DNA of 64,000 nucleotides, from positions 480,001 to 544,000 of the forward strand of contig CAWGMA010000002.1 of NCBI GenBank assembly GCA_963823555.1. Reading direction: 5' to 3'. Position numbers and translations under genes: made by a program. This stretch comes from Candidatus Eiseniibacteriota bacterium (GTDB lineage: Bacteria; Eisenbacteria; RBG-16-71-46; CAVPCR01). The notes below the pieces were generated by a model. The model was not told where the DNA came from, searched no databases, and saw only the letters and a list, made by a program, of their open reading frames with translations. Positions 15,901 through 42,837 of the stretch are shown piece after piece (position 1 is the stretch's first letter; the number at the start of each line of letters is the position of its first letter).

Positions 15901-16188
15901 CACGTCGCCATGACAATCGGTGCAGAGCTGGGGGAAGTCCTTCTGCAACGTGAGCTTCTGCTCGAATCCGTGACGCTTGTGGCAGGACTCGCAGTCCTCC
16001 TTCTTCACCGGGTCGTGCACGATCTTCTTGTTGTAGGCCTCGCGGGCATCCTTGTGGCATTCGTAGCAGGGCCGCCCGGCCGCCTGTGCGTCCCGATCCC
16101 CAACCATCAAGAGGAGACCGGCGGCGACGAGTGCCCACAGAATGCACGCGGCTCCGGAACCCACGACGCCACGGGCGCGCGCGATCAT
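12969..16188 (-). CDS. Giant periplasmic multiheme c-type cytochrome, 42 CxxCH motifs (~1070 aa); one frameshift near 15670
   Basis: Signal peptide MIARARG...AQA plus 6 CxxCH in the 15577..16509 frame, then 36 CxxCH in the 12969..15752 frame (hand count). Alternating HxP..G.CxxCHxPH / LL....LCxxCH paired-heme repeats. Confidence 0.93.
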
Positions 16189-16742
16189 CACTTTTCCTCC
16201 TTCGTGACAGTGGGGGGCACGGAGGGGGAGTCCGCCTTGTAACCGTTCACCTCCTTGAGCTGGAAGCTCCAGAAGGAATTCGGGGAGAAGTGGGGCGGGA
16301 AGTTCTGGAATGCCCAGGTCGAATCCACCGCCCCCGAGTCCCCATAGACATAGATGTGTACGGCCGGGTTGTTGAGCGCGCTCGAGGCGCTCAGGAACTG
16401 GCCTTGATCGATGATGAAATCGGGAAGGAAGCGCGTGACCCTGGCGCTGAACTCGGTATCTCCGATGTAGAAGGTCTCGTTCAGGTGAACCCGGTTCTCC
16501 TCGCGCCACTCGGGATAGAGCCGGCTGCCGGTCACGATCGAGAACGTGACGCTCGTATCGACCTCACCCCCGGCCGCGCGCACGGCGTCGGGAGCGGGGA
16601 CCATCGTCGAGTCGGCGAGGATGGCTGTCTCCTCCGCGGCCGGGGCGACCGGTCCGGGAAGCGAGTGGGGTGGGGTTTGCGCTCGCCCGGCCCAGCCCCA
16701 GAGGACGAGGAGCAAGCTCGCGCCGAGGGTCCAGGTCTTCAT
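16188..16742 (-). CDS. Small exported protein (DUF2155/ResB-periplasmic-like)
   Basis: Signal peptide MKTWTLGASLL...GRA; motif RVTRFLPDF...SASSALNNPAV. Its stop overlaps the cytochrome start (GTGATG). Confidence 0.65.
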   Translation of the reverse strand: MKTWTLGASLLLVLWGWAGRAQTPPHSLPGPVAPAAEETAILADSTMVPAPDAVRAAGGEVDTSVTFSIVTGSRLYPEWREENRVHLNETFYIGDTEFSARVTRFLPDFIIDQGQFLSASSALNNPAVHIYVYGDSGAVDSTWAFQNFPPHFSPNSFWSFQLKEVNGYKADSPSVPPTVTKEEK

Positions 16743-16746
16743 GCCT

Positions 16747-17387
16747 TCACTCCGTGCTTCCTGTGGTCTGGGGGGTGGCGCCACGTCCGGCCCCCCCGGT
16801 GGTGGGGAAGGTCTCGAGCATCTCCTGCACGGCGATCGTCGCCATCTGCTCGAGGCTCTGCACGCGGCCGAAACCGAAGACCGACTCGCCATCGCCCCCG
16901 TCACGGCTGTGCACCGCGCTCCACAGCACGCGCCCGCCTGGGGTCTCGAGCAAGCGGAGCGAGAGCGAGATCTGGGGGATCATCTCCCCCTCGAACTGCC
17001 GGGTCGTGTAGCCGGTCAGCGATCCCACCATGATCGCGTTGGCGCCGAGCTCCTGCCCGACCGAGTCCACGAGGTCGGGGAGGCGATCGAGCATGAGCCA
17101 TGGCTCCTTGGCGAGCGCGGCCTGTCCACCTCGCCCTGATCCACGATCTGAACCCCCGGCTTCTGCGCCAGCTCGACCGTCAGGATCGGCAGCACGCGAT
17201 CGGCGGCATCGCGGTTCGAGGTGTAGTTGGCGAGGGGCAGGATGGCGATGCGCCAGGTTCCGGCCAGCGGCTGGGCGATGTAGACCTGTGGTTTGGGCCC
17301 GCATCCCGCCAGCGAGGCGAGAAGGCGAGCTGCGACCACCGCCAGGGCGGCAAGCGAAACTCGATGCGACCGATCGTGCGCTCTCAT
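16747..17387 (-). CDS. Lipoprotein, CsgG/PelC/GNA1162-like alpha/beta fold; frameshift near 17122
   Basis: Lipobox LAGC then RIAILPLANY in the 17016..17933 frame. Continues as ELGANAIMVGSL...ISLSLRLLE...GRVLWS in the 16747..17304 frame. Paralog of the upstream gene. Confidence 0.8.
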
Positions 17388-17388
17388 G

Positions 17389-18000
17389 TCACTGTCCCTG
17401 CGGCAAGGTTGACAGGATATCCCGCGACATGTCCGCGGTGAGCTCGCCCATGGTGTGCACCTCGCCGAAACCGAAGATGGGGAAGCCCGGTCCGCCACGC
17501 CGGGTCCGGCTCCCGGTCCACACGATGCGACCGGATGCGGTGTCCACCAGCCGCACCTCGAGCGAGAGCAGGGGGTAGCTGTCGCGTCCCACTCGCTCCA
17601 TCGTGTAGTCCCGCACCGCGCCCATGAAGACGCCCTGGACTCCCATCTCCTCGCCGAGCCGCGCGAGCTCCTCGCTCGACCAGGGGTTCGTGACCGGAGT
17701 GCCGCCCCGCAGCGCGAACATGGAGGCGACGAGCTGACCCGGTTCGACGACCTGGGCGAACCCCCTGCGCAGGAGCTCCGTGAAGAAGACGTCCGCGACC
17801 TTCTGCCCGGCGAGCTGATCCTGGGCCAGGGAGTTGAACGGGGCAACGGCCACCCGCTCGTAGTAACCGAGATCGGCCTCTTCATCCACGAAGTGGGCGG
17901 GCCCCGCACAGGCGGAGACGAGAAGGGCCACACAGAATACGGCGCCTATCCCCCTCAGCGACTCCACCCGGCGAGCTCTGTCTGTCCTCTTTGTCTTCAT
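17389..18000 (-). CDS. Lipoprotein, CsgG/PelC/GNA1162-like alpha/beta fold
   Basis: Lipobox VSAC; RVAVAPFN, EMGVQGVFMGAVRDY, LSLEVRLVDTASGRIVW. Confidence 0.85.
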   Translation of the reverse strand: MKTKRTDRARRVESLRGIGAVFCVALLVSACAGPAHFVDEEADLGYYERVAVAPFNSLAQDQLAGQKVADVFFTELLRRGFAQVVEPGQLVASMFALRGGTPVTNPWSSEELARLGEEMGVQGVFMGAVRDYTMERVGRDSYPLLSLEVRLVDTASGRIVWTGSRTRRGGPGFPIFGFGEVHTMGELTADMSRDILSTLPQGQ

Positions 18001-18030
18001 ACGTTTCTCGCTTCGTTCGCCCGTTCGAAC

Positions 18031-19685
18031 TCAGAAGTCCTTCTGCAAGTTGGCGGAGTAGTAGCGGCTCCGCGGCCCGTTCTGCTGCTCCACCTGCTGC
18101 GTGCTCAGGAGCACGCGGAACTCACGGGGCAGCCAGAAACCCAGATCGAAACCAAAGAGTCTCTCCTCGCTCTCGAAGGACCGCAAGCGGGAACGCCGGC
18201 GCTCCCAGTTCGCCGCCAGCGTGACCTCGCGCGTGGCGGTCCATGAGGCGTTGAGGCTGGTGACGTTGTCCACGCGGATGACGAGCCCCTCGGCCGTATC
18301 GCGCCGGTGGGACGCCACGAAGCTGAAGTTCTGCGTCGGGTTGTAGCCGAGCAGGAGGTCCCACTGCCGCGTGCCCTGGCGCAGCCCGGCGAAGTCGGGC
18401 TGGGAGAGACGCGTCCAGGTGATGTCGAAGCGCGTCGTGGGTACCGGTACCGTGCGCAGCTGGAGGAGCTGGCGCGACTGATCGCGGCGGATATCGGTGC
18501 TGCTGTCCCGCTGGTAGCTCGCCTCGGCCCGACCGGCCATGCCGCGGAGGATGGGTCCGTCCAGCATGGCATAGACCGAGTTGGTCGGGATCCCGGCTCG
18601 GTTCTCCGAGCTGTCCTTGATCCGCTCCGTCCTCCGGAAGCCGGCCAGGAGCTCGACGCGCCGCCAGACCTGGTCACGGAATGTCGTCTCGAAGCGCAGG
18701 TAGTCGGCGATCAGGCGCCCTTGCACCTCGTTCGTCTGCCGGTAGTCGCGGGCCAGCTGGAAGGTGAGCGGCACGATCGGCTGGTACTGGACGCCGGCGC
18801 TCAGGAAGGTCTCATCGGTATCGATGGGCAGGGGGAAGGCGTTGTCATCGGTGGACTGCCAGCGCTGGAGGGCGGTTCCGAAGAGGGAGACCGAGCGCGC
18901 GGGACGCCAGTTGAGGGCCGCATTGATGCGATGGGCCTCGAGATCGCGGCGTCGCTCGCGGGCGCTGAAGTCGCTCAAGAGGACATCGTAGTCGGCGCTC
19001 AGACTCACTCGCCTGATCGTCGGTCCGGCCCCGGACTCCGGCGCGCAGCTCCTCGGTGACCTGATCGACGCCGTTGGGCCGCCGGTCATCCGCGTCGATG
19101 CGCCGGAGGCCCACGAATCCGCCCACGTCGTCGGTGCCATAGGAGAGTTCCGCGCGACGGTCGTCGTTGGCCGAGGGGCCGAGGCCGATCTCGCGCTCGC
19201 GGTGCTGCCATTCGGCAAAGAGGTTGGGAAGATTGCGGGGCGTGACCCGGACATTGATGTAACCGAAACGCTCCTTGGCCGGGTCGGGGCCCGGCGACAC
19301 CTCTTGCCACGGTGTGAACTGACCTTCGAGGCGCCAGGTCTGGGCGATCAGCTCCCCCTGGAATCGGTAGCGGAAGACATCGCCGTCACTCACTCCCAGC
19401 TCGCTCAGGTAGCGCAGGAACGCGCGCAGCCTGAGGTCGAGCCCGGCCGGGGGTCGTGCCCCGCGTCCACATGTCGAGCTGATGCTGCATGGTGTCGATG
19501 GTCTGATCGCCGAAGATCGTCGTGCCCGTGAGATCGTTGCGTGTGATGGACCCGATGTAGCGACCGTCGATCTCCATCCCCCTGGCGGGCAGCGCGACCA
19601 TCGCGACCAGCGAGGAGCAGGCGCAGATCACGAGCGGGATCGCGATCTTCCTTCCCGGTGCGCTCCATCGCCGGCCTGGCATCAT
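18031..19685 (-). CDS. Outer-membrane beta-barrel protein (~550 aa); frameshifts near 19450 and 19020
   Basis: Signal peptide (...AMVALPARG). Amphipathic beta-strand pattern across three joined frames; C-terminal YYSANLQKDF ends in Phe. Confidence 0.8.
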
Positions 19686-19689
19686 GGGA

Positions 19690-20871
19690 TCAGTACCCGA
19701 TCTCGATCCCGCCCGGTTCACCCGAGGCCGGCCGGTGGACGTTGAACCCGGTGGCGCTCGAATAGTCGCGGCCGTGGCAGTCGTGGCAGCCCTGGGTCGC
19801 CGAGGCTCTGTGTGCGCCTCCTGGTCCGAGATCGCGTTCATGACGATGCCCTCGACCGTCTCCGAGTCCCGGGATGCCGTCCGCCGGGATGTGGCAGCCG
19901 AAGCAGAAGCGGCGGTTCTGCTCGGCATCGCCAGGGTGTCGGTGAGGCCGCTCCAGCCGACGACGCTGATCGCTGATCAGGAAGGCGTTGGGCTGCGACC
20001 CGATTGTTGCCCTTCGGAACCGTGCGGGTTGTGGCAGTCGTAGCAGGGCAGCTTGTCGCCGACCTGGATGTGCGGCCGGCCAGGAGAGGGCGACGTTGGA
20101 GTTGCGACGGATCTGGTGGCCGGCCGACGCTCGCCGTTCAGCCCGCTGTCGTAGTAGTCCTCGATGTAGCGGTTCTCGGTGATCCATCCCGGACGGACCG
20201 TCGGCGCCGTGGCAGGAGAAGCAGAGGCCGTAGCTCGCCGGTGGCGCCCGATCCCGGCGTGGCCGCTGATCCCGCCATAGAGGGCGACCAGGATGTCGCG
20301 CGGGTTCTCGGTGCCGTGCGGGTCGTGGCAGTTGAGGCAGAGGCCCTGCCCGGCCGCGTCCTGGCGCGGCATGTCGGGATCGTGTGGCGTGCGGGGAGAT
20401 CGTAGTGGCCGGCGGCGGTGACCCGCGGGTCGGTGTAGACGACCTCTCCCGGCCAGCGTCCCCGGAACTCGACGCCCGCGCGCCGGATGCCGCCCGCGTT
20501 GGCCTCGAAGTAGCCGGCATCGGGCTCGGTGTCCGGCATGCGGTCGATCTCGCCGAGCGGGTAGTTCGTGGGCCGGGACTGGTGACAGGGGCGGGCGCCG
20601 TCGGCCCAGAAGGCCAGGCGGTTGGTCGTTCTCGGTGAAGAGGTTGCTGGCCGAGGGGGACGCGCCGGCATCAGCCTCGTGGAACGCGTGGCACTGCGTG
20701 CACTCGCCGCGCGTGGGCGATTCGGTCACCTCGCGGAGGACACCGGTGGCGGGATCCCCGTGCGGATCATGGAGGAGTTCCTGTGCCAGTGACCCAGGCG
20801 GTCAATCCCAGGACCGCCGTGAGGACCATGCCGGAAGTGGTCTCACCGGTCGCTTTCATCGGCCGAAGCAT
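19690..20871 (-). CDS. Exported multiheme cytochrome c (6 canonical CxxCH plus one degenerate site); multiple frameshifts
   Basis: RBS GAGGGA and ATG 20871, hydrophobic leader, then HDPHGDPATGVLR...GECTQCH. CLNCH, CFSCH, CYDCH, CFGCH and CHDCH follow, spread over several frames. Confidence 0.75.
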
Positions 20872-20977
20872 GTCCCTCGTGGATGTCCTCGGCGACTGCG
20901 ACGATCGCAGGAATGCCACGAGATCAGGTCCGGGCGCCGACCATGGCCGGAGTGTCGGCGCCCGGTCCGAGGACGGG

Positions 20978-21004
20978 GAGCCCGGAGCGCTACCGCCCGG
21001 GCTC
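20978..21004 (-). terminator. Stem-loop immediately 3' of the OmcS-like gene
   Basis: GAGCCCGG-A-GCG-CTAC-CGC-CCGGGCTC inverted repeat 17 nt downstream of the stop. No U-tract. Confidence 0.5.
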
Positions 21005-21021
21005 GTCGACGTCAGGCCGAT

Positions 21022-22130
21022 CTACCAGGGATCGCGGTCGCCACCCTGGCGGTGGCACTGGCGGCAGCTGTTGCGAGCGTCGAGCGCCGTCGTCGCCCTG
21101 CTCCGTCACCGTTCCGGTCCCGACCATGTAGATCAGGCCGAACGCGTTCTGGTTGCCGTGCGACTTGTGGCACGACATGCAGGACGGGGTGAGCTCGGTG
21201 TCGGTGCCGTCGTAGCCGGTGGCCGAGCCGTAGGGCTTCGGCTTCTGGCCGGTCGGCGACATCACCTGAACCTGGTTGCCCTTGGCCGACGAGCGGTGGC
21301 GAGCGAGGAGTGCCCGCCGCCAGCGGCGCCGATGTTGACACCACCGGACGGGTGACGGACGAACTCCTCCGCCGGAGCGCCGATGCCGCCGATCTCGGGA
21401 CCGCCCACGTCACCGTGGAAGTTGGTGTGGCAGTTCTTGCAGCACGTTGGCGTAGGCCGACTTGCTCTGGTCAGGCTCGTTGAACGTGATGGCCCCGACG
21501 CCGTAGTGGTTGGCGTTGGTGCCACCCGAGACGTCCTCGTAGACCCAGGCGCCGAGGTCGTTCGCAGCCTCGACGTCACCGCGGGTGTAGCTGATGCTGG
21601 TGGACGTCCCGCCATCCACGAACAGGTTCCGGTAGCCGCCCTGGGCCGCATGGCTCCGGTCGAGCCGCGGCGTCCGACCGTGAACGGAGTGGCAGTTGGC
21701 GCAGTTCAGGCCATCCGGGTTGGCGAAGGTGCCGCCGGGAGCGATCGTCCGTCGAGCCGAGCGTGTGCCCGGTGGGCGGCGGATACAGGCCGTTCCCGCC
21801 GACCTCGTTCAAGGCGCCCGCCTGCCGGACGTAGCCGTTGCTGTGCGCTTCGAAGACGTCCGGAGCGAACGCCTGCCCGTCGTGACAGCCGAGGCAGAGA
21901 TCGTTGATGTCGTTCCGGAGCAGGTAGTGGTACGGGCCGTCGGCGCAATGGGACCATAGTTGCCCGTGCCGTTCGGGTTGTAGCCGTGCGACTGGCTGTA
22001 GTGCATGACATGGCAGTCCTGAGCAGATCAGGCCGACCCCGAAATGGTAGTCGCCGGCGAAGCCGACGGCGGCGAATGCCACCATGGCCAGCCCGACTCC
22101 CATCGCGGTCAAGAGACGCTTTAGGTTCAC
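21022..22130 (-). CDS. OmcS-like hexaheme outer-surface cytochrome (~370 aa); multiple frameshifts
   Basis: RBS AGGAGGT, GTG 22130, signal peptide. Reconstructed: GDYHFGVGLIC(S/Q)DCHVMHYS...YLL...LCLGCH...GHTLG..APGGTF...LNCANCHSVH...GGYRNL...CKNCHTNFH...RHP...CMSCHKSHG...CRQCHRQG...W-stop. Confidence 0.8.
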
Positions 22131-22165
22131 GTGAACACCTCCTGGTGGAGAAACCCGTCCCACCC

Positions 22166-23225
22166 TCAGGGCTCGGCCGTCGCCGAGTCCTCCGGATTGG
22201 ACGGAAGGCCAGAGAGTTCCAGGTTGATGACCTGACAGCGGGCACCAGCCCGTTCCAGGACCACCAGCTGGTCCTCGGCCAGAAATGCGCAAGCGGCCGG
22301 GTAGTAGAACTCGCCGGGTCCCTCGCCATAGCCCCCGATGCGCCCGCGATACCCGCCCCGGGAATCGAAGATGCTGATCGAGTGCCGGATCGTATCGGTG
22401 ACCCAGAGGGTGCTCTCCGGGCCATAGACGGCGTGGACCGCCATCGAGAACGTGCCGTCGCCGTCGCCGTGCTCTCCGAACTGGGCGAGGAGCGAGCCAC
22501 CGATCGTGTAGACCGAGATCTGGTACTTGGCCTTGGGGTCGGTGATCGCGATCTCGGTTTCGTCCGGGTTCACGGCAATGGCGATGGGGCCGATCCAGGC
22601 GCCGGTGTCCGTCTCGGGGAAGCCGAGCTGCCCCACGAAACTTCCATCGTGCTCCAGGATCATGACGCCCGAGCGAGCGCCCGAGCAAAGGAGGTAGATG
22701 CGACCGCTCCTGCCGATCGCGATGGCCGAGGGCCTGGTCTGGCCCTCGAGCTCGGCAGGAAGAGCGGGGTGCAGGATGCCGAGATGCGAGCCGCGGGGGC
22801 TCAGGACCTCGACATCGGCATTGGTGGCATCGACGACGAACATGCGGCCGCGGCGATCCAGGGCGAAGGAGGCGGGGTCGACGATGCCGCCCGACGCGTC
22901 CCATGGGGTCGTAGCGCACGGCGCCGCGCGAGCGCCCCGTCTCGTCGAAGGTGACGATGCGGCTGTTTCCGGTGTCGGAGACGAGGAAGACCCCCCGCGC
23001 CGAGTCGGCGGCGATGCCGCGGGGCCGGCGGAAGACGTCCAGGGCCGAGGGGCCGTAGAAGATGGTCTCGACGGAGCGGATGGAGGGGGCAGCAGAAGAA
23101 GCCTCATCGCCAAGCGCGCCATGCGCGGGGGCGGTGAGGCTCAAGATCGCGAGGAGGGCTCCCAGCGGGAGAAGGAGGCTCTTCGACGCGCGGTGACCCA
23201 AGTCTGCGTTTCCCCTGCCAATCAA
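22166..23225 (-). CDS. NHL-repeat beta-propeller protein, exported; frameshift near 22905; start uncertain
   Basis: FRRPRGIAAD...VSDTGNSRIVTFD, QFGEHGDGDGTF, WVTDTIRHSISIFD, IGGYGEGPGEFYYP. Hydrophobic leader LLLPLGALLAILSLTAPAHG. Confidence 0.85.
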
Positions 23226-26634: not shown

Positions 26635-27840
26635 GTGGACCCATCGACCATGAAGCCACCGCCCCATCTCGTTGCCCCGCCGCGCGACGACGCCGAGCTC
26701 TCGGCCCTCCTCGACGTGCTCGCGCGAGTCTTCAACTTTCCGCGCGAGTACGCCAATCATTACGTCGAGCACCTCGGTCGTGAGAACATGCGCGTGCTCC
26801 GCGCTGATGGTGTCGTGGCCGGTGGGCTGGCGCAGCTCCCCATGGCGCAGTACTACGGCGGACGGAGCGTCCCGATGGCGGGGATCGCCGTCGTCGGCGT
26901 GTCGCCGGCGGCACGGAGCTCGGGCGGGGCCACCGCCCTCATGCGTGCCACCCTCGAGGACCTGCGCGCGCGCCGGATCGCCCTCTCGGTCCTCTATCCG
27001 GCCACCGTGCCGCTCTACCGGCGGGTGGGTTACGAGTTCGCGGGGAGCCGCTACGAGATTCGCCTCATCCTCCGCCAGCTCCATCTCCGCGATCGCGGCC
27101 ATGCGATCCGACCCATCACCGACGCTGATGCGGCAGCGGTCGAGGCCATCTACGAGAAGCATGCGCGGAACACCGCTGGCTTCATCGATCGCTCGGCCTT
27201 CATCTGGCGGCGCGTGCGCGCGCCGCGCTGGGAACCGGCCGAAGGCTATCTCGCCGTGAATCCGGCGACCGGCGAGGCCGAGGGCTACGTCTACTATCAG
27301 CGCAAGGAGAGCCCGGAAGCCGCATACCTGCTCCAGCTCTCGGACATCGTTGCACTCACGCCCGCTGCCGGCCGGCGCCTCCTGAGCTTCCTCGCCGACC
27401 ACCGCTCGATGGCCGATCTCGCGATCTACGCCGGGAGCGCCTGCAATCCCCTCATCCGCCTCCTGCCGGATCGCGCGTCCCCGGTGCGGCTCTTCGATCA
27501 CTGGATGCTTCGCCTCGTCGATCTCGAGCGCGCGCTCGAGGAACGCGGCTATCCGGCGGGCCTGGCGGCCGAGATCCATCTCGAGGTCGCCGATGACGTG
27601 CTCGCAGCGAACAGCGGGCGGATGGTGCTCACGGTAACGGACGGGCGGGGGAGCGTGCGCGAGGGTGGCCGGGGCGAGATCCGCGTCGATATCCGCGGCC
27701 TCGCCGCGCTCTACACCGGGCATGCGACACCCTGGGAGGTCGCAGCCGCGGGCCAGCTCACGGCAATCGCCGAGGCTCCGCTCGCCCTTCTCGCTGCCGC
27801 CTTCGCCGGCCCGGCGCCCGCGATGCCCGACTTCTTCTAG
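26635..27840 (+). CDS. Eis-like (enhanced intracellular survival) GNAT acetyltransferase
   Basis: GIAVVGVSPAAR..G.ATALM, SVLYPA...LYRRVGYE. C-terminal SCP2-like domain (LAALYTG) ending PDFF. Confidence 0.9.
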   Translation: MDPSTMKPPPHLVAPPRDDAELSALLDVLARVFNFPREYANHYVEHLGRENMRVLRADGVVAGGLAQLPMAQYYGGRSVPMAGIAVVGVSPAARSSGGATALMRATLEDLRARRIALSVLYPATVPLYRRVGYEFAGSRYEIRLILRQLHLRDRGHAIRPITDADAAAVEAIYEKHARNTAGFIDRSAFIWRRVRAPRWEPAEGYLAVNPATGEAEGYVYYQRKESPEAAYLLQLSDIVALTPAAGRRLLSFLADHRSMADLAIYAGSACNPLIRLLPDRASPVRLFDHWMLRLVDLERALEERGYPAGLAAEIHLEVADDVLAANSGRMVLTVTDGRGSVREGGRGEIRVDIRGLAALYTGHATPWEVAAAGQLTAIAEAPLALLAAAFAGPAPAMPDFF

Positions 27841-27920
27841 CAGGCGGTGCTCGCCCACGCCCGATTTCGCGGGCCTCGCGCGGCGTTCTTTCCTGGTCCA
27901 GCCGGCCGGCCGCGCCTATA

Positions 27921-28814
27921 ATGCGCCCCATGCTTGGCTCCCGGTCCCGCCGAGTCGTCATGATCCTCGTCCTCCTCCTCGCCACCTGCTCCGTGGCGTG
28001 GGCGGAGGGGGATGCGGCCGACGAACCAGCCGTCCCGGAAACCCGCTGGTTCGCCACCGAGCGGCTCAACATCTTCATCCCCTTCGTCATCTTCACCGGG
28101 CTCGTGGGTTCCTTCATCGCGCTCGCCCGACGCGGCTCCCAGCTCTTCGTGCGCCGCATCGCCGGGCTCGACGCCATCGACGAGGCCATCGGCCGCGCCA
28201 CCGAGATGGGTCGTCCCATCCTCTACTCACCCGGCCTCGACGAGATGGATCAGCCGGGCACCGTGGCCTCGATCAATATCCTGGGCCAGGTCGCCGAGAA
28301 GGCGGCCACGTATGACTCGCGTGTCACCGTGCTCAACCGCGACCCGATCGTGATGAGTGTCGCCCAGGACGTGGTCAGGAGCGGCTACCTGCGCGCCGGA
28401 CGCCCCGACCTCTTCCGTGAGGAGGATGTCTTCTACGTCACCTATAGCCAGTTCGGGTATGCAGCGGGGGTGGCCGGCTTCATGGTGCGCGAGCGGCCCG
28501 CAGCCAACTTCTTCCTCGGCCGTTTCTATGCCGAGTCGCTGGTGATGGCCGAGACCGGACAGACCACGGGCGCCATCCAGATCGCGGGCACCGACTCCGA
28601 TGCCCAGCTCCCCTTCTTCATCACCGCCTGTGACTACACGCTGATCGGGGAGGAGCTCTACGCCGCCTCGGTCTATCTGGCGCGGGAACCGCTGCTCCTC
28701 GGGAGCCTGAAGGCCCAGGACATGGCCAAGCTCCTGATCATCGTCTTCATCGTGCTGGGTGTGGTCGGCGGGTTCCTGGGCGTGTCCCTCGACTTCTGGA
28801 CGGCCGCCGGATAG
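27921..28814 (+). CDS. DUF6754-like membrane protein (module copy 1, gene A)
   Basis: RRIAGLDAIDEAIGRATEMGRPIL...FYAESL..AETG...GAIQIAGT...QLPFF..ACDYTLIGEELYAAS.YL. Clear paralog of 41563..42837. Confidence 0.85.
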   Translation: MRPMLGSRSRRVVMILVLLLATCSVAWAEGDAADEPAVPETRWFATERLNIFIPFVIFTGLVGSFIALARRGSQLFVRRIAGLDAIDEAIGRATEMGRPILYSPGLDEMDQPGTVASINILGQVAEKAATYDSRVTVLNRDPIVMSVAQDVVRSGYLRAGRPDLFREEDVFYVTYSQFGYAAGVAGFMVRERPAANFFLGRFYAESLVMAETGQTTGAIQIAGTDSDAQLPFFITACDYTLIGEELYAASVYLAREPLLLGSLKAQDMAKLLIIVFIVLGVVGGFLGVSLDFWTAAG

Positions 28815-28830
28815 GGGAGGGCGAGGACGC

Positions 28831-29490
28831 ATGCTCCAGCGCACCGGACCCCTGGTCTTCGCCATCGTCTTCGGCGTCTTCATGGCGCTCCAGTACTTCA
28901 TCCCGCACCCCGCGATCGTCCGCTTCTACAACCTGGTCCTCGACTGGAAGCAGGTCGTCTTCGGCTGCACGCTCACCCTCGGCATCTTCAGCCTCCTCCG
29001 CTTCCATGGCCGCAAGGTGGCGCGCCGGGACCGCGGCGCCTTCTTCAGCGGGGTCGCCCTGGTGTCGTGCCTGGCCACGGTCGCCTGCGGCATCTTCTTC
29101 GGCATCGAGACCGGACCCTATCGCTGGCTCTTCGATCGCGTGCAGGCCCCGATGCAGGCGACCCTGTTCTCGATGCTCGCCTTCTTCGTCGCCTCCGCTT
29201 CCTATCGGGCCTTTCGCGCCCGCTCGGTCCACGCCACGCTGCTCCTCGTGGCCGGCTGCATCGTGATGCTGGGACGGGTGCCGACGGGTGATCTCATCGG
29301 CTTCGACGTGGGCGGGGCGCGCTACTCGCTCGCCGGGCTCGCGAGCTGGCTCCTCGACATTCCGAATCTTGCGGCAAAGCGCGGAATCCTGATCGGGGTC
29401 GGCCTCGGCATGATCTCGACCTCGCTCCGCATCATCCTCGGCATCGAGCGCGCGTACCTCGGACAGTCGCGCCAGCAAGGTGGATCATGA
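28831..29490 (+). CDS. Conserved polytopic membrane protein (module copy 1, gene B)
   Basis: ATLFSMLAFFVASASYRAFR and W..DIPNLAAKRGILIGVGLG...ILGIER. Paralog of 40898..41521. Confidence 0.85.
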   Translation: MLQRTGPLVFAIVFGVFMALQYFIPHPAIVRFYNLVLDWKQVVFGCTLTLGIFSLLRFHGRKVARRDRGAFFSGVALVSCLATVACGIFFGIETGPYRWLFDRVQAPMQATLFSMLAFFVASASYRAFRARSVHATLLLVAGCIVMLGRVPTGDLIGFDVGGARYSLAGLASWLLDIPNLAAKRGILIGVGLGMISTSLRIILGIERAYLGQSRQQGGS

Positions 29491-30377
29491 ACGGCGGCGG
29501 CAGAGAGCACGGCTGGGTCGAGCGCCTGGTGGCCTTCGATCGCCGCTGGATCTATCTCTTGATGGCGATCGCGGTCGCCTTGCCCATGCTCTTGCCGCTC
29601 AAGCTCCCGATCGTGGTCTCGAAGGAGGTCGCGGCCTTTCATCGCGAGATCGAGGCCTTGCAGCCTGGGGACGAGGCGTTGCTCTCGATCGACTATGAGC
29701 CCGATGTCATGGCCGAGCTCGATCCCATGACCGAAGCCGTTCTCGACCGCCTGTTCGCCAAGGGCGTCAAGGTCATCTGCATGACCAACTACGCGGGTGG
29801 AGTCGGGGTCGCCCAGCGCCAGCTCGAGGCGGCGGCCACACGTTATGGCAAGGTCGACGGCACCGATTATGTCTTCCTCGGTTACAACCCGGACTGGTCG
29901 GGCACCATGCTCCGTCTGGGGGAGAGCATCCGCGCCACCTTTCCGGTCGATCAGTTCGGGCACCCGACCAAGGACCTTCCGGTGCTGGCGGCGTGCAATG
30001 CCTACAAGGACATCGAGCTCCTGGTCTCGATCTCGGGGAGCGCGCTCTCCGAATACTGGGCGGCCTACGCCGGGGCGCGCTACGGGCAGCGCATGGTGTC
30101 GGGGAACACGGCGATCCAGGCCATCTTCATCTATCCCTTCTTCCAGTCCGGACAGATCAAGGGTTTCCTCGGCGGGCTCAAGGGGGCGGCGGAGTACGAG
30201 ACCTTGATCGAGCGCCCGGCCTTCGGTGTCCGCGGCATGGGCTCGCAGTCGGCGGGGCACATCCTCATCGTCGCCGCCGTCATCCTCGGCAATGTCGGCT
30301 ACTTCGCCATGCGGAAGCGGGGCACCGCGACGAGCGGCAACCGTCTCAAGAGCCTCGATCCGGAGGGCCGCTCATGA
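29487..30377 (+). CDS. Conserved membrane-anchored protein (module copy 1, gene C)
   Basis: DRRWIY, IDYEP..AELDPM, DYVFLGY, YPFFQSGQI.G.LGGLKGAAEYE. Paralog of 40016..40876. Confidence 0.85.
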   Translation: MNGGGREHGWVERLVAFDRRWIYLLMAIAVALPMLLPLKLPIVVSKEVAAFHREIEALQPGDEALLSIDYEPDVMAELDPMTEAVLDRLFAKGVKVICMTNYAGGVGVAQRQLEAAATRYGKVDGTDYVFLGYNPDWSGTMLRLGESIRATFPVDQFGHPTKDLPVLAACNAYKDIELLVSISGSALSEYWAAYAGARYGQRMVSGNTAIQAIFIYPFFQSGQIKGFLGGLKGAAEYETLIERPAFGVRGMGSQSAGHILIVAAVILGNVGYFAMRKRGTATSGNRLKSLDPEGRS

Positions 30378-31003
30378 GCGCCGACGTGAGCATCTGGATC
30401 ACCGCTCTCCTCACGCTCGCCATCTTCTCCTTTCTCTACAAGGAGAACCCCGTCTTCCGCTTCGCCGAGCATCTCCTCGTCGGCGTGTCAGCCGGGTACT
30501 ACGTCGTCCAGTACTTCTACTCGGGCGTGATCAAGAAGCTCGTGGTCCCGGTGGGGCAGGACTTCGGCGCCAACTGGCCGCTCATCTTCGGCGGTGTCCT
30601 CGGCGTTCTCATGTTCACGCGTCTGTCGCGCCGCTTCGGCTGGGCGGCGCGTTACCCGATCGCCTTCTACGTCGCCGCGGGTGCCGGCTACTTCATCCCC
30701 TCGATTCTCGATGCCAACATCCTGAAGCAGGTGGGGGGTACGCTGACCGCCCCCGCGGCGGCGACGAGCCCGTGGGCCATGGTCTCGGCCTTCATCCTGG
30801 TGGCCGGCGTGATCTCGAGCCTCATCTACTTCTACTTCTCGGTCGAGCACCGGGGCCCCGTGGGCACGGCATCGCGGATCGGCATCCTGTTCCTGATGCT
30901 CGGCTTCGGTGCCAGCTTCGGCTACACGGTGATGGGGCGTATCACGCTCCTGATCGGCCGCTTCCAGTTCCTGTTCCACGACTGGCTGGGGTTGATCCAG
31001 TAG
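30374..31003 (+). CDS. Conserved polytopic membrane protein (module copy 1, gene D)
   Basis: TLAIFSFLYKENP.FRFAEHL.VG.SAGY and GFGASFGYTVMGR..LL. ATGA coupled to gene C; paralog of 39376..40011. Confidence 0.85.
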   Translation: MSADVSIWITALLTLAIFSFLYKENPVFRFAEHLLVGVSAGYYVVQYFYSGVIKKLVVPVGQDFGANWPLIFGGVLGVLMFTRLSRRFGWAARYPIAFYVAAGAGYFIPSILDANILKQVGGTLTAPAAATSPWAMVSAFILVAGVISSLIYFYFSVEHRGPVGTASRIGILFLMLGFGASFGYTVMGRITLLIGRFQFLFHDWLGLIQ

Positions 31004-31013
31004 GCGCCGCGCC

Positions 31014-31896
31014 ATGAGCCTAGCCCAGAAGATCCGAGTCGCCCGCGAGCTCTTCGCCTACCACCGTTCGCGCTCCGCCGCCTTCGCCGAGCACGATTAC
31101 CACGATGTCTATGGGGCCACCCGCGAGCGTCTGGAGCGCGCGCTCGGCAGGCCGGTCGCGGGGATGCGTGTTCTCGATATCGGCTGCGGGCAGCGCACCC
31201 CGGCGAGCCTCCTCTTCGCCGCCGCCGGGAACACGGTTGCCGGCATCGACACCGAGCTCATCACGCCCGGCCCGGGACCGATCTCCTTCCTGCGCGTGTG
31301 GCGGGCGAACGGCCTCGAGCGCGCGGCGAAGACCCTGGTGCGGCAGATCCTCTTCGATCCCGCCTATGATCGCCGTCTCTCCGAGCTCGCCGGCAAGCGC
31401 CTCTCGCGCCGCGCGCTCGATCTACGCTGCCTCTCGGTCGCCGCTCTGCCCTTCGATGACGCCAGCTTCGATGTCGTGATCTCGAACGCGGTCTTCGAGC
31501 ATCTGCCGGACGTGCCGGCGGCACTCGCCCAGGTCGCGCGCGTGCTCAAGCCGGGCGGGGTCTGCCACATCGGGATCCACCTCTTCCCGAGCCTCTCCGG
31601 CGGTCACCACATGGCGTGGGCCTTTCCCGACGAATCGGTGCCGGAGGGGATCCCGCCCTGGGATCACCTGCGCGAGAACCGCTTTCCCGCGCATGTCTAT
31701 CTCAACCGGCTCAGGGAGAGCGACTACCAGGCGGCGTTCGCCGCCGCGCCCGCGCTCGAGCTCCTCGAGTGGGTGACGGCGCGCACCGAGGGCGAGTCGC
31801 TCCTGACGCCCGAGATCGAGCGCGAGCTCGCCGAGTCGCTACACGCGGGAGGATCTCCTCAAGCGCTCGGTGATCGCGATCGCCCGCCGGCGGTAG
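31014..31896 (+). CDS. Class I SAM-dependent methyltransferase; frameshift near 31835
   Basis: VLDIGCG, LPFDDASFDVVIS, VFEHL, RVLKPGG. The plausible C-terminus RYTREDLLKRSVIAIARRR-stop is in another frame. Confidence 0.85.
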
Positions 31897-32023
31897 GGGG
31901 TGCGCCACTATTCTGGTGCAGTCGCACGGGGCGATTGCCCGATCGCTCGTCATCGTCTATGCTTCCGCTGAATGCCTCGCCCGACCAGCTTTCGGTCCGC
32001 TCCCGTCTGAGGAGGCGAAGGCC

Positions 32024-33358
32024 ATGCGACTGCTTGCCGCCCGTTCTTTCCGCGGCGCTTCCGGCTCCTTCCGTGTCCCGCCGCCTCTCGCGCTCCTGGT
32101 CATCCTCGCTCTCACTCTCCCGGTCGCAGCCGGGGCCGCCACCTACATCGTCAAGCCGGATGGAACGGGGGATCTTCCCACCATAGAAGCTGCTGTCGCC
32201 GTCGCGTCACATGGGGATGTGATCGAGCTGACCGACGGCGTCTTCACCGGTGCCGGGAACCGCGACATCGACTACGCCGGGAAGGCGGTCACCATTCGTT
32301 CACAGAGCGGCGATCCAGCAGCTTGCATCATCGATTGCGAGACTTCCCTCAATGCGCCGCATCGAGGATTTCTGTTTCAGAGCTCCGAGACGGCTGCCTC
32401 CGTGCTCTCTGGAGTCACCATCACCAACGGTGGGAACGTCGACTGGTTCGATCCCCTTGGTTACGCGGGAGGGGCCATTTACTGCCAGGATGCGTCACCC
32501 GCTATCGTCAACTGCTGGCTTATCGGCAACGGCGCCCACGCTGGGGGAGGTATCTACTCGTCCGGAGGATCACCCCAGATCGTGGACTGCAAGATCGAGA
32601 GCAACTCGGCCACACACGCCCTCGGGGGCGGAGGCGGTGGCGGTATTCTGTGCGCGGGCGGGGCTCCCATCATCCGCAGTTGCACGGTCGTCCTGAACAG
32701 CACGGGTGCCAACTTCGTCGGCCATGGCGCCGGGATCCATATCGATCACTCGGCGGCCGTCGTCGAGGACTGTGTTGTTGCCGGTAACTTCGGTGACGGC
32801 AGCGGGGGAGGCATCGCCTGTTCATTCAGCGACCTGGAGGTCGTGATCTCCCGCTGCGTCGTGAGCGGAAACATGGCCTACTGGCAGGGTGGGGGCCTAT
32901 CCGCCCGGGGCCCGGTGCGGATCGAGCACTCCACCCTCGCCGGGAATTTCTCTGCGGGTATCGACGGTGGCGGCGGCGTCGCCGTCCGTCAAGCCCATGT
33001 CGAGAACACGATCGTCTGGAACAACTGCACTCACGATGGCGTTGCGAATCAAATCTCCGTGTCCGATGCAGTCACGTTGGAGTGCAGCGCGGTCGATCCC
33101 AACGGCGTCGCCGGACCAGGGACCGTGACCTACATGGGTGACAATGTCTTCACGGACCCGCTGTTCTGCGCTCCTGCCCAGTGTTCCGATCAGGGTGGAA
33201 CCACGGAAGGCGACTATTCGATCGGCGAGAGCTCCCCGTGTGCCCCGGCCAATTCACCAGGAACTTGCGGCCTTATCGGAGCGTTGTCGGCGGGGTGTAC
33301 CAGTACGGTCGAGCACGCCACCTGGGGTGAAATCAAGGGGCGCTACAGGACCCGATAA
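32024..33358 (+). CDS. Secreted right-handed parallel beta-helix (pectin-lyase-fold) protein with C-terminal TWGxIK tail
   Basis: Signal peptide; repeated N....GGGI.C turns; C-terminal DPLFC...SPC...CGLIGA...GC...ATWGEIKGRYR. Confidence 0.85.
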   Translation: MRLLAARSFRGASGSFRVPPPLALLVILALTLPVAAGAATYIVKPDGTGDLPTIEAAVAVASHGDVIELTDGVFTGAGNRDIDYAGKAVTIRSQSGDPAACIIDCETSLNAPHRGFLFQSSETAASVLSGVTITNGGNVDWFDPLGYAGGAIYCQDASPAIVNCWLIGNGAHAGGGIYSSGGSPQIVDCKIESNSATHALGGGGGGGILCAGGAPIIRSCTVVLNSTGANFVGHGAGIHIDHSAAVVEDCVVAGNFGDGSGGGIACSFSDLEVVISRCVVSGNMAYWQGGGLSARGPVRIEHSTLAGNFSAGIDGGGGVAVRQAHVENTIVWNNCTHDGVANQISVSDAVTLECSAVDPNGVAGPGTVTYMGDNVFTDPLFCAPAQCSDQGGTTEGDYSIGESSPCAPANSPGTCGLIGALSAGCTSTVEHATWGEIKGRYRTR

Positions 33359-37216: not shown

Positions 37217-37387
37217 TCAGACCTGCTGCATCGCCGTCGAGACGATATCCCACAGGCGGCCGATGATCGGGCTGATCGCCATCAGGGCGATGAGAGCGGC
37301 GATCGAGATCAAGGCGGCGATGAGACCGTATTCCATCATATCGGCGCCTTCATCGTTGGCGATCAATCGGCGAAGGTGTGTGAGCAT
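37217..37387 (-). CDS. flp: Flp/Tad type IVb pilin
   Basis: 56 aa: short leader ...NDEG|ADMMEYGLIAALI with E+5/Y+6 followed by a hydrophobic helix. Confidence 0.9.
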   Translation of the reverse strand: MLTHLRRLIANDEGADMMEYGLIAALISIAALIALMAISPIIGRLWDIVSTAMQQV

Positions 37388-39375: not shown

Positions 39376-40011
39376 CTAGAACAGCTTGCCGGTGAGGATC
39401 GTCACGTAGTCCTTGAGGAAGATGACGCGCTGGACGAGGAGAGCGACACGGCCCATCACCGTGAGACCGAACCCGGCGCCGAAGCCGACCATCAGCGTGT
39501 AGATGCCGACCCGCGACGCGGTGCCGAGAAGTCCGGTGTGGTGCTTGGAGAAGAAGAAGTAGGAGAGCGAGCAGACGAGACCGACCAGGGCGAGGAAGAA
39601 GTTGAGCCCGCCGAGCGACGCCGTCACCGGGCGGATGGTGCCCTCGACCTGCAGGAAGACTCCGGTCTTGAAGGCCAGCGGGATGAAAACACCGGTCGAG
39701 ATCCCGATGTAGAAAGCGAGCGCGTACCGGGAGAGCCAGCCCTGGCGCGGCGAGAGACGGAACCACATGAGCACGCCGAGGGCCACCGGGATCAGATAAT
39801 GCCACTGGTGATGCTGGGCGATGGGCACCCACACCTTGTCCCAGAAGCTGGTCCAGAAGAGCAGCATCGTCCAGTAGCCGGTGGTGATGCCGACCCATAG
39901 CCGCTCCACGAACTTGTAGATCGGGTTGTCGCCGATCAGGAACGAGAAGATGGCGAGCGTGACGAAGGCGGCCAGCGTCTGCCAGGCGAGAACGTCCCAG
40001 GTCGGTTCCAT
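39376..40011 (-). CDS. Conserved polytopic membrane protein (module copy 2, gene D)
   Basis: TLAIFSFLIGDNP.YKFVE.L.VG..TGY and GFGAGFGLTVMGR..LL. Confidence 0.85.
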   Translation of the reverse strand: MEPTWDVLAWQTLAAFVTLAIFSFLIGDNPIYKFVERLWVGITTGYWTMLLFWTSFWDKVWVPIAQHHQWHYLIPVALGVLMWFRLSPRQGWLSRYALAFYIGISTGVFIPLAFKTGVFLQVEGTIRPVTASLGGLNFFLALVGLVCSLSYFFFSKHHTGLLGTASRVGIYTLMVGFGAGFGLTVMGRVALLVQRVIFLKDYVTILTGKLF

Positions 40012-40015
40012 ATTC

Positions 40016-40876
40016 CTACCTCGCCCCCATGGCGCGCTTGCGCGCCCGCCGCTGCGCCACGTAGGCGATGTTGGTGAGCACCATGAACACGATGATCACG
40101 AGGTGGGTCGTCATCTGGTAGGGCATCCCGCGCGAGCCCTGGCCACGGTGTCCGGTGAGCATCTCGTACTCGGCGGCACCCTTCATGCCCGGGATGAGCC
40201 CGAAGATCTGCCCGGACTGGAGATAGGGGTAGTAATCGGAGGCCATGACGCCCGTCACCCCGAGGGCGACGGGGACCCCGTACTTGGCGTTGCCATAGGT
40301 GATCCACATGTCGGCGACGTTGCCGCCGGCGAGCGAGACCACCCCCTTCACGTTCCGGTAGTTGTGGATGTCCTCCATCATGGGGATCGAGTCGACCGGC
40401 GTGCCGTAGTAGTCGGTGGGGAACGGCACGCGGAAGTCGGTGCCCATGGCGAGGATGGTGATCGCCGGGTAGGGCTTGTAGCCGAGGAAGGCGTAGTCGA
40501 TGTTGCGCTCTTTGCCCTCGTCCGTGGCCACGCGCACGATCAGCTCCTCGGCCATCGCCGGTCCGAACTGCGAGAGCGCCGTGATGACCACGCGCGCCCC
40601 CCGCTGGAAGGCCTGGCGGAGGATGGCCTCCGCCATCGGGTGGAGCTCGGCGAGCGTCGAGGGGTCGTAGTCGATGGCGAGGAAGAGGTTGTCTCCCGGC
40701 TCGAGCGCCTCCACGAACTCGTAGACGTCCCGGACCTCGCTCGAGATGCCGGTCGGAACGCTGAAGCGCAGCACCGCCGGGAGGAGAACGGCGACCCCCA
40801 GGATGAAGTAGATCCAGCGGCGATCCACCACCAGCATCTTGTCGTACCAGCGAGAAGTCTCGGGGCGCGCTTCCAT
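40016..40876 (-). CDS. Conserved membrane-anchored protein (module copy 2, gene C)
   Basis: DRRWIY, IDYDP..AELHPM, DYAFLGY, YPYLQSGQI.G...GMKGAAEYE. Confidence 0.85.
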   Translation of the reverse strand: MEARPETSRWYDKMLVVDRRWIYFILGVAVLLPAVLRFSVPTGISSEVRDVYEFVEALEPGDNLFLAIDYDPSTLAELHPMAEAILRQAFQRGARVVITALSQFGPAMAEELIVRVATDEGKERNIDYAFLGYKPYPAITILAMGTDFRVPFPTDYYGTPVDSIPMMEDIHNYRNVKGVVSLAGGNVADMWITYGNAKYGVPVALGVTGVMASDYYPYLQSGQIFGLIPGMKGAAEYEMLTGHRGQGSRGMPYQMTTHLVIIVFMVLTNIAYVAQRRARKRAMGAR

Positions 40877-40897
40877 CGGGTTCTACTCCTCCACCAC

Positions 40898-41521
40898 CTA
40901 GTCCCGGCCCATGTAGGAGCTCTCGATGCCGAGCAGGATCTTCATGCTGTAGCTGATGGCGCCCAGAGCGACACCGATGATGATGGCGCGTTTAGCGGCC
41001 ATGTTGGGTACGGCGAGGATCCAGCGCACCACTTCCGAGTTCCAGGTCGAGAGCGGCTCCGGCAGCGGGATCAGCCGCAGCATGACCACGAAGGCGGTCA
41101 ACAACAAGATCGCGGCGAGCACGGTGCGCACGCGGAATGCCCGGTAGGCGGCGCTCGCGATGTAGAAGGCGAGCATCGAGAACAGGGTGGCCTGCGCCGG
41201 GACCAGGACCCACTGGAAGAGGTTCATGAAGAGCGTGCCCGACTCGAAGCTCTCGCGCCGGAGCCCGGTCACGACCATGACCAGGAAACCGATGATGGTG
41301 GTCGCCGAGTAGAACCGCTCCTTGCGATCGTGCTGCGCCTTGTTCCAGGTGTTGCGGAGGAGCGAGAAGATGCCGATCGGGAGGGCCAGGATACCGATCA
41401 CGATCACGAAATCGTTGGCGTAGGTGAACAGGAACTCCGAGAACGGGTGCGGCACGAAGTACTGGATCACCATGATCAGGCCGGCGACGAAGACGAGGAA
41501 CAGCGGAATCTGCCTCTTCAT
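40898..41521 (-). CDS. Conserved polytopic membrane protein (module copy 2, gene B)
   Basis: ATLFSMLAFYIASAAYRAFR and W..AVPNMAAKRAIIIGVALG...LLGIE. Confidence 0.85.
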   Translation of the reverse strand: MKRQIPLFLVFVAGLIMVIQYFVPHPFSEFLFTYANDFVIVIGILALPIGIFSLLRNTWNKAQHDRKERFYSATTIIGFLVMVVTGLRRESFESGTLFMNLFQWVLVPAQATLFSMLAFYIASAAYRAFRVRTVLAAILLLTAFVVMLRLIPLPEPLSTWNSEVVRWILAVPNMAAKRAIIIGVALGAISYSMKILLGIESSYMGRD

Positions 41522-41562
41522 CGCTCATGCATCCTGGTTGAGCCCATTGTTGCTCCGAGTCG

Positions 41563-42837
41563 TCATACGGCGTGCACGAGGCGCGCGATGATGTTGGAGC
41601 CGAAGAACGTGTAGGCGGCGACCCCGACCACGAGCAGGGTGAGGATCACGATCTTGGCCAGGTCCTGCGCCTTGAGCGGTCCCATGAGCACCGGTTCCTG
41701 CGACAGGTAGGCCGAGGCCGCGTACAGCTCCTCGCCGATCAGCGTGTAGTCGGTGGCGGCGACGAAGAACGGAATCTGCGCCAGCTGGTCGGTGCCCGAG
41801 ATCTGGATCGAGCCGGTGATGCTCCCCGCCTCGGCCAGGAGCAGGCTCTCGGCGTGGAAGACCCCCATGTAGAAGTTGGTCGCCGTCCGTTCGCGGAGCA
41901 TGAGCCCGTTCACCGCCGCCACGTACGGGAACTGCATGGCCGAGATGTAGAAGATGTTCTCCGGGCGGTAGACGTCGGGACGTCCCGCCTGGAGATAGGC
42001 CTCGCGCACGGTCTCCTGCGCCATGGCCATCATGACCGGATCGTTCACCGGCACCAGGATCGGCGTCTGGTACTCGGCGGTGCGCCGGGCGACGCGGGCG
42101 AGGATGGTGTAACCGGCGATGGTGGCGATGTCGCCCGCGGTGCCGGTGCCGAGCACGAAGAGGATCGGACGGCCCATCTCGGTGGCGCGGCCGATCGCCT
42201 CGTCGACGGCCGAGATGCCCGCGATCGGGCGGATGAAGAGCTGGCGCCCCTTGCGGGCGGACTCGATGAAGCCGACGGTGGCGATGGCGAAGAGCACGAC
42301 CGCAATCAGGACGTTCAGTTTCCCGGTGTGGAACCAGTTGCCGGCGGCGATGCCCGTGACCGGAGCGGTGAAGGGGGAGACGCCGCCGTCGGCGGCCCGC
42401 CCGCGAATCCGGAACGCGCGCGGCTCGCCCACGGGCACGAACGTGGGATTGGGTTGGCCCTCGAGCGAGGCTTCTTCCGATTCGTGGTTGTAGGTGGTGG
42501 TTCCGCGCGGCGCGTTGCCGACGAGCACCCACGCCTCGTCCGGCGCGTCGGGCGCCGGCGCCATCCACACCTCGTAGGTGAGGAGCTCCGCGTCGTCGGG
42601 GGAGAGCGTCCAGCGAAGGGCGATGCCGTGTCCGTTGTCGTTGGGGGCGTCGCGGGCGGTGAGGGAATTCGGCGGGCTGAAGGCGATCGGCGGGGGTGGA
42701 TCGGTGATGTCCGCCGCGGCCGGATCGGGTTCGACGGCCTGGTCCTGTGCGAAGAGTCCCGCCGGCGCCGGGAGCAAGAGCCCGATCCCGACCGCCAGCG
42801 CTACGCCGAGAACGGCGAGTGTTCGGAGCGTGGGCAC
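41563..42837 (-). CDS. DUF6754-like membrane protein with N-terminal extracytoplasmic FN3-like domain (module copy 2, gene A)
   Basis: Signal peptide, DAPNDNGHGIALRWTLS beta-sandwich, then RPIAGISAVDEAIGRATEMGRP...DYTLIGEELYAASAYL. Confidence 0.85.
   Translation of the reverse strand: MPTLRTLAVLGVALAVGIGLLLPAPAGLFAQDQAVEPDPAAADITDPPPPIAFSPPNSLTARDAPNDNGHGIALRWTLSPDDAELLTYEVWMAPAPDAPDEAWVLVGNAPRGTTTYNHESEEASLEGQPNPTFVPVGEPRAFRIRGRAADGGVSPFTAPVTGIAAGNWFHTGKLNVLIAVVLFAIATVGFIESARKGRQLFIRPIAGISAVDEAIGRATEMGRPILFVLGTGTAGDIATIAGYTILARVARRTAEYQTPILVPVNDPVMMAMAQETVREAYLQAGRPDVYRPENIFYISAMQFPYVAAVNGLMLRERTATNFYMGVFHAESLLLAEAGSITGSIQISGTDQLAQIPFFVAATDYTLIGEELYAASAYLSQEPVLMGPLKAQDLAKIVILTLLVVGVAAYTFFGSNIIARLVHAV

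Follow-up and report, generated by a model that had tools for sequence, protein, structure and literature searches.

To our knowledge, the ATP-driven solute importers described so far use ATP-binding cassette (ABC), P-type or rotary ATPases. In group II energy-coupling factor (ECF) systems, one energising module serves many membrane modules across the genome. ATPases of the GlmL/MutL and Or-4 type (PF13941; NF040745, TIGR01319, NF040744) are accessory to B12-dependent mutases, and MutL/GlmL is called a reactivating chaperone in PMC4682846. Glycerol dehydratase reactivase uses ATPase and swiveling domains to take hold of a partner subunit and let it go again, as described in PMC7674605. Here we analyse a four-gene membrane module, A-B-C-D, in a stretch of 64,000 nucleotides from a Candidatus Eiseniibacteriota genome (contig CAWGMA010000002.1, positions 480,001 to 544,000; below, the window), together with an ATPase, G, and a second protein, K. 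The gene system is real and undescribed. A belongs to DUF6754 (PF20539); we found no paper on this family or on the system, in a search that left most subscription journals and all supplements outside. We propose, with a probability of about 0.45, that A-B-C-D serves as the membrane component of an importer that is driven by ATP and probably carries peptides, the copies of the module sharing one G-K motor. An importer powered by an actin/Hsp70-fold ATPase would, if true, be a new class.

The first copy of the module lies on the forward strand of the window. It consists of A, the DUF6754 subunit (27921-28814; 297 amino acids from the first ATG), B (28831-29490; 219 amino acids, about six membrane segments, N-terminus inside), C (29487-30377; 296 amino acids, an outward-facing Rossmann-type domain between the transmembrane segments TM1 and TM2) and D (30374-31003; 209 amino acids, six to seven membrane segments, N-terminus outside). 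An earlier note on this DNA had described four tightly coupled genes, and the coordinates agree: ATGA overlaps join B to C and C to D, and the gap between A and B is 16 bases. A matched PF20539 with 383.9 bits (gathering cut-off 27, E 4e-115) over positions 2-245 of the 257 in the profile. For B, C and D, no match was obtained in Pfam at E ≤ 0.1 or above cut-off in NCBIfam; K and two small genes of the system, S and T, were also left without a family. Assignment to families thus placed A in a family without function and B, C and D in none. The same note had seen no ATPase, Fe-S or heme motif, and no such family was matched in A-D in Pfam or NCBIfam.

The motifs that had been pointed out in B and D are present and are kept over the 78 modules that we compared. 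The conserved residues are S122, R126, R129, N179 and R184 in B (S122 and R184 are invariant) and N25, E32, T185 and R189 in D, which also has a Gly-rich C-terminal hairpin. R184 of B and E32 and R189 of D are conserved charges within or near membrane helices. A has the invariant acidic positions E95, E150, E205, E211, E244 and E245. C237 of A is kept at 96%, and H258, in the second membrane helix of C, at 99%.

Conservation extends to the arrangement of the genes. Our neighbour survey covered 75 loci from other species with 92 A genes. Where 2.6 kb or more of sequence was available downstream (73 A genes), B, C and D came next in 72 cases, in keeping with the expected co-occurrence of the four genes. 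Pairwise distances of the A, B, C and D proteins correlated at 0.76-0.83. Natural fusions joined B to C (one of 61 long B proteins) and C to D (one full fusion in 66 long D proteins, and a further partial one), single cases that could be sequencing errors; A was fused to B, C, D, G, K or S in none of 150 A representatives. No A homologue was found in 72,556 plasmids, and PF20539 matched none of 14 control genomes. The proposal of a four-subunit membrane complex was borne out as far as the conserved module goes; the fusions and the distance correlations support the complex itself rather than establish it.

We searched 624 genomes from four phyla with PF20539 and with G. Both A and G were found in 233 genomes and neither in 386; three had A only and two G only. 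These counts are given without a p-value, and kin genomes among them are not independent. In the phylum of the host, 136 of 151 genomes had both, one A only, one G only and 13 neither. The corresponding figures were 19, 0, 1 (a fragment at a contig end) and 101 for the phylum of a Nitrospira genome (121 genomes), and 38, 2, 0 and 111 for that of a Phycisphaerae genome (151 genomes). The fourth phylum, to which a genome titled Bacillota belongs, gave 40, 0, 0 and 161 (201 genomes); the "neither" class here takes in three genomes whose only match was a short one to GlmL at 30-34% identity, and one whose A match was below cut-off. The system is thus present in 16-25% of the genomes sampled from each of the three other phyla.

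Joint loss of A and G was observed inside five genera of the host phylum. The co-occurrence is not mere linkage, since four planctomycete genomes assembled at single-contig scale have 250-530 kb between G and A, and in the four genomes in which A stands apart from B-C-D, B and D are kept elsewhere in every case. We conclude that A-B-C-D very probably works with G-K. The earlier note had inferred a stand-alone secondary transporter or channel and had named phyletic profiles as a check; the joint presence of A and G in 233 of the 238 genomes having either speaks against that inference.

G and K (375 residues) are encoded directly upstream of copy 3 in the main operon of the host genome (C1:1506701-1514700, reverse strand), which contains glycine-cleavage (gcv) genes, T, S, G, K, copy 3 and a lipoate ligase gene. 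Across the 75 loci, K was present in 21, G in 19, S in 17 and T, a small membrane protein, in seven. The usual order was nearly always S-G-K-A-B-C-D, with K directly before A in 21 of the 75; in the fourth phylum it was often A-B-C-D-T-S-G-K. G matched PF13941 with E 2.5e-128 and contains two invariant stretches, D14-G16-S17-T18-T19-T20-K21 and D288-G290-G291-A292-T293-T294-D295, which we take to be both phosphate loops of ASKHA ATPases. Between phyla its sequence identity is 58-73%, and most genomes contain one G; A gave one to nine matches. A weak match to Hydantoinase_A (E 1.6e-5) was also detected in G. The matches of K were weak as well: RnfC_N, a barrel-sandwich hybrid (E 0.003), and an RraA-like family (E 0.011). 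A sequence search of solved structures gave nothing significant for A, C and G, and for K only RraA (E 0.011).

A second family consists of G-K fusions of 870-920 amino acids that stand alone, are about 44% identical to G and occur mostly in module-rich genomes (for example L116:3396-6146, L117:7312-10005 and L124:7200-9803). A K-like sequence followed G in 11 of the 12 regions, as a single open reading frame in the three that were inspected. The existence of this family ties G to K.

We also considered whether G is a mutase helper here. G stayed below the three NCBIfam cut-offs for GlmL, TIGR01319 and Or-4 proteins (235.8 against 475, 217 against 600 and 166.7 against 204.05), and glutamate mutase E (PF06368) was found in none of five module genomes, with a weakly positive control in one of 14; this role was rejected. 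PF09043 was also found in none of the five, though the control set gave no match either. Many genomes are probably mis-annotated, because G carries the label of a glutamate-mutase helper. Two further ideas were rejected: G does not power the adjacent Opp permeases, as those operons have two ABC ATPases of their own, and the modules next to G are not a special clade, as K-adjacent modules are spread over the tree.

Structure models were predicted for A and C only, C being modelled alone (predicted local distance difference test, pLDDT, 91.2 for A and 95.5 for C). Together with hydropathy, they agree with the claim that A and C each have a soluble domain between transmembrane anchors. The order of elements is identical in the two models: a membrane helix, a helix, six beta-alpha units and a membrane helix. 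A and C are predicted to share one Rossmann-type fold in opposite membrane orientations. A was closest to the DHS-like fold (Sir2, Z 11.9, root-mean-square deviation (rmsd) 3.6, 144 residues aligned), and the best match of C was MT0777 (Z 9.7, rmsd 3.2, 138 aligned); 11 of the top 50 targets were common to both. Identities were 5-16%, and no match stood well above general Rossmann folds. Foldseek gave only weak Rossmann-type matches (best E 7e-4 for A and 1e-4 for C). In the ESM Atlas, a C homologue fell in unnamed clusters only and a D homologue had no usable named match. Profile comparison of A with C, and of B with D, gave a probability of about 1%, with scores inside the shuffled-column controls. 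Since the profiles show no A/C similarity, the case for homology of A and C comes from the models.

The mean number of Lys and Arg residues around the first helix was 1.7 before and 4.4 after it in A, and 3.4 before and 1.4 after it in C (78 modules). A has a signal peptide, and an N-terminal extension of more than 100 residues precedes DUF6754 in 141 of 150 representatives; among 32 extensions scanned, two contained FN3 domains and two a beta-propeller. The A of copy 1 is without this variable outer domain. The outer loop 3 of B, poor in Lys and Arg, carries inserts in 60 of 61 long forms, including a carbohydrate-binding module in two and a C-like domain in three, and relatives of D have variable outer domains. 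The Lys and Arg pattern, the signal peptide and the outer-loop inserts indicate that the domain of A faces the cytoplasm and that of C faces outward. Mean identity over the 78 modules was highest in the inward domain of A (57%) and lowest in the outward C (40%). An extra C gene follows D in three loci.

On balance, we think that the module is a solute importer and that ATP drives it. B and D may form the translocation path, with R184, R189 and E32 buried in it. The outer domain of C would capture cargo, aided by the variable outer domains on A, B and D. By analogy with the reactivases, G-K would grip and release the inner domain of A in each ATP cycle, so that the module switches between outward and inward states. 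A single G-K pair could dock on this conserved domain, and several modules would then share one motor. A more far-reaching version is tentative, and we incline to doubt it: that an actin/Hsp70-fold G with a swiveling-domain K drives interchangeable four-protein modules, each constructed around a pair of like domains on the two faces of the membrane, and that many uncultured lineages that degrade proteins now take up peptides mainly by this system in place of Opp/Dpp. Descent of the G-K-driven importer from cofactor-releasing chaperones, which forms part of that version, is no less speculative. The system comprises eight genes, has no cofactors and offers a clear ATPase mutant, and is directly testable.

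Several observations bear on the cargo. In the host phylum, glycine-cleavage genes border the main operon on one side and a lipoate ligase gene on the other. In 20 regions, which come from four families, D is followed by an entire oligopeptide ABC operon; these regions were picked for a nearby binding-protein match, so the number is not a frequency. The number of modules falls as that of family-5 binding proteins rises (rho -0.49 over 151 genomes and -0.48 over 17 families, p 0.05; the host genome was entered as four copies instead of six matches). The 87 genomes with at most two A matches had a mean of 4.1 such proteins, and the 64 with at least three had 1.9. Control binding proteins showed no such drop (rho +0.23 for amino acids, -0.03 for phosphate and +0.15 for iron/B12). 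The earlier note had thought of peptides or amino acids in view of the peptidase-rich window. Peptides remain the best guess, by way of the Opp neighbours, the glycine-cleavage and lipoate genes and the correlation; the peptidases of the window (PepN, M16, C25 and a PmbA/TldD relative), at 3 to 26 kb from copy 1, are weak evidence. We hold the cargo to be peptides or amino-acid derivatives with slightly less than even confidence. Peptide import, if true, would account for the nutrition of lineages that have many modules but few binding proteins of the Opp/Dpp type.

A number of points weigh against an importer of peptides driven by G-K. About five lineages carry the correlation, and one family (f11) breaks it, with medians of 4.5 modules and four binding proteins. 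Family-5 proteins also bind nickel, heme and sugars. Outside the host phylum no catabolic neighbour recurs among the neighbours scanned (117 + 57 of 241 + 123); the neighbours there include tpi/secG, lipid genes, a Memo-like gene and a short-chain dehydrogenase gene. The system is single-copy in loci labelled Nitrospira, Scalindua and Methylomirabilis, and these organisms are chemolithotrophs or methanotrophs with little use for peptides. B and D match no transporter family, and the likeness of C to the lobes of ABC binding proteins (Z 8.1-8.5) is not above that to other Rossmann folds. The stand-alone G-K fusions were without a module in all 12 regions, so the pair also occurs apart. Finally, the host G has three frame breaks and K has one, and copy 4 is frame-broken too. 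Since 10 of 98 testable host genes show frame changes, housekeeping genes among them, assembly errors are likely in G and K; the alternative is decay.

Among the other explanations, an ion-driven carrier or gated channel holds up best, though we regard it as unlikely. G-K would then be a regulator or assembly chaperone and not a motor, in line with the description of the characterised relative of G as a chaperone in PMC4682846. A and C do resemble RCK gating domains (YbaL TrkA-N, Z 9.6, rmsd 4.2, 128 aligned, for A; TrkA, Z 9.3, rmsd 3.5, 126 aligned, for C), but A fits the DHS-like fold better. Like domains in opposite orientation recall inverted repeats, yet no sequence repeat was found between B and D or between A and C. 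The conserved E32 of D could bind a cation; a near-absolute tie to so conserved an ATPase would nevertheless be unusual for a secondary carrier.

Slightly less likely still is an envelope scaffold or an export or assembly machine. G would then play a part like that of MreB, FtsA or PilM, and surface proteins would be anchored or handled by the module. The large and varied outer domains on A, B and D would suit this role, as would a single copy beside housekeeping neighbours in several phyla. However, the patchy presence (19 of 121, 38-40 of 151 and 40 of 201 genomes) and the occurrence of up to about nine complete paralogous modules are more in line with units that are each specific for a substrate. 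On this reading, one would not expect modules to be fewer where peptide-binding proteins are many, and no cargo, pilin or wall-synthesis gene recurs.

Group translocation similar to that of the phosphotransferase system (PTS), with G as a kinase or a hydantoinase/oxoprolinase-like enzyme that alters the cargo on entry and K as a carrier, appears improbable. The Hydantoinase_A match of G and the RnfC_N and RraA-like matches of K point in this direction, barrel-sandwich hybrid and RraA-like folds being known from EIIA and EI of the PTS, and one energising pair is common to many modules. But 20 K sequences contained no invariant His or Cys, no hydantoinase-B partner recurred in 75 + 40 loci, and a single enzyme would have to act on whatever as many as nine modules bring in.

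We give very little credence to a nucleotide- or redox-linked ion pump, with A similar to transhydrogenase domain III and K to NqrA/RnfC. A aligned with domain III (Z 10.0, rmsd 3.3, 142 of 180 residues) as well as with Sir2, and K has its RnfC_N match; identities were only 8-14%, however, with no match to the PNTB family, no flavin, Fe-S or dehydrogenase partner recurred, and paralogues with variable outer domains are atypical of energy-converting complexes. The least probable reading is a cobalamin or vitamin importer in which G prises the cofactor off A: the named relatives of G do so for B12 enzymes, and one ATPase for several modules recalls the vitamin-importing ECF systems, which share one ATPase among modules, but paralogues that are 38-57% identical suggest many variants of a single class of cargo, lineages with many modules show no shortage of iron/B12 binding proteins, and no B12 gene recurs among the neighbours.

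The host genome contains four copies of A-B-C-D with identical gene order. Copy 2 (39376-42837, reverse strand) faces copy 1 at a distance of 8 kb and consists of A (41563..42837; 424 amino acids, including an N-terminal outer extension of 160 residues that copy 1 does not have), B (40898..41521), C (40016..40876) and D (39376..40011), which are 54%, 40%, 38% and 44% identical, respectively, to their counterparts in copy 1. Copy 3 is that of the main operon; two oligopeptide-type ABC ATPases are encoded about 8 kb beyond it. Copy 4 (C4:398882-401876, forward strand), with its breaks in A and D, is preceded by a secreted subtilase-like gene. The copies sit in different deep branches of the tree of 78 modules; they are old.

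Upstream of copy 1, a terminator-like hairpin (27867..27883, forward strand) lies 3' of the acetyltransferase gene, and copy 1 probably has its own transcript start because of it; three terminator-like sites in the region, against 1.5 ± 1.1 in shuffled sequences, are weak evidence. The codon model favoured the ATG at 27960 over the first ATG of A. A TATAAT hexamer (27918-27923) overlaps that first ATG, an argument for translation from further downstream, at 27930 or 27960. The genes on either side of copy 1 encode an Eis-like GNAT/SCP2 acetyltransferase (26635-27840, forward strand) and a methyltransferase (31014-32186, forward strand), neither of which was seen again beside other modules in the 75 loci. 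Elsewhere in the window we noted a CxxCH-rich multiheme cytochrome reading frame with lipoproteins and a beta-barrel-like reading frame (12972-22843, reverse strand; gene calls poorly resolved), a small Flp-pilin-like reading frame (37220-37366, reverse strand) and two large helicase/nuclease-like genes of AddAB type (43097-49557, forward strand), the last two items being named from their translations.

Other loci showed further neighbours. A microcompartment cluster (BMC, EutN and an aldehyde dehydrogenase) follows the peptide ABC operon in four loci of one family. The Memo-like gene stands after D in nine loci of the Nitrospira group, and the short-chain dehydrogenase gene before A in about ten loci of the fourth phylum, where the extension of A has 500 residues. 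A TonB-dependent receptor gene follows the main operon in five loci, with ExbB/ExbD-like genes in three.

How does the system compare with those already known? By the family tests, A-B-C-D is neither an ABC nor an ECF importer nor a transhydrogenase, and it is probably no PTS or known RCK system either. No ABC-type ATPase, BPD_transp or solute-binding protein family was found in A-D, G, K, S or T. Opp/Dpp is a frequent neighbour in the host phylum, is inversely abundant and possibly shares the cargo class; A-D are without its ABC families. No PTS family was matched, and K has no invariant phospho-accepting residue. The likeness to transhydrogenase is one of fold only, with no PNTB match and no domain I partner among recurrent neighbours. 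In fold, the soluble parts of A and C resemble DHS-like proteins (Sir2, transhydrogenase domain III, CODH epsilon) and RCK domains, here placed between two anchors each; the RCK-like fold is tied with other Rossmann folds. Compared with inverted repeats, the A and C models share the order of elements and face opposite ways, without profile similarity between A and C or B and D.

A is a full member of DUF6754, a family that covers one subunit of the system, has no function and is named in no paper that we found. G matches PF13941, to which GlmL/MutL belongs, with intact ATP-binding loops, but it has about 120 residues more, forms a pair with K and stays under all three cut-offs for GlmL/MutL and Or-4. 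G and K may together offer the combination described for the DdrA/GdrA reactivase in PMC7674605, where an Hsp70-like ATPase domain comes with a swiveling domain and a partner subunit is gripped and later freed. Neither gave a significant match to the solved structures, the swiveling domain of K being suggested by one weak match, and the client here would be a membrane protein, whereas that of the reactivase is an enzyme. ECF systems are built from two ABC ATPases, a T subunit and S components encoded by one gene each; no match to these families was seen in B, C, D or G. In the way they work, group II ECF systems nevertheless provide an analogy, a shared energising module for scattered membrane modules, and the copy numbers of G and of the modules fit sharing of this kind, which we infer for G-K.

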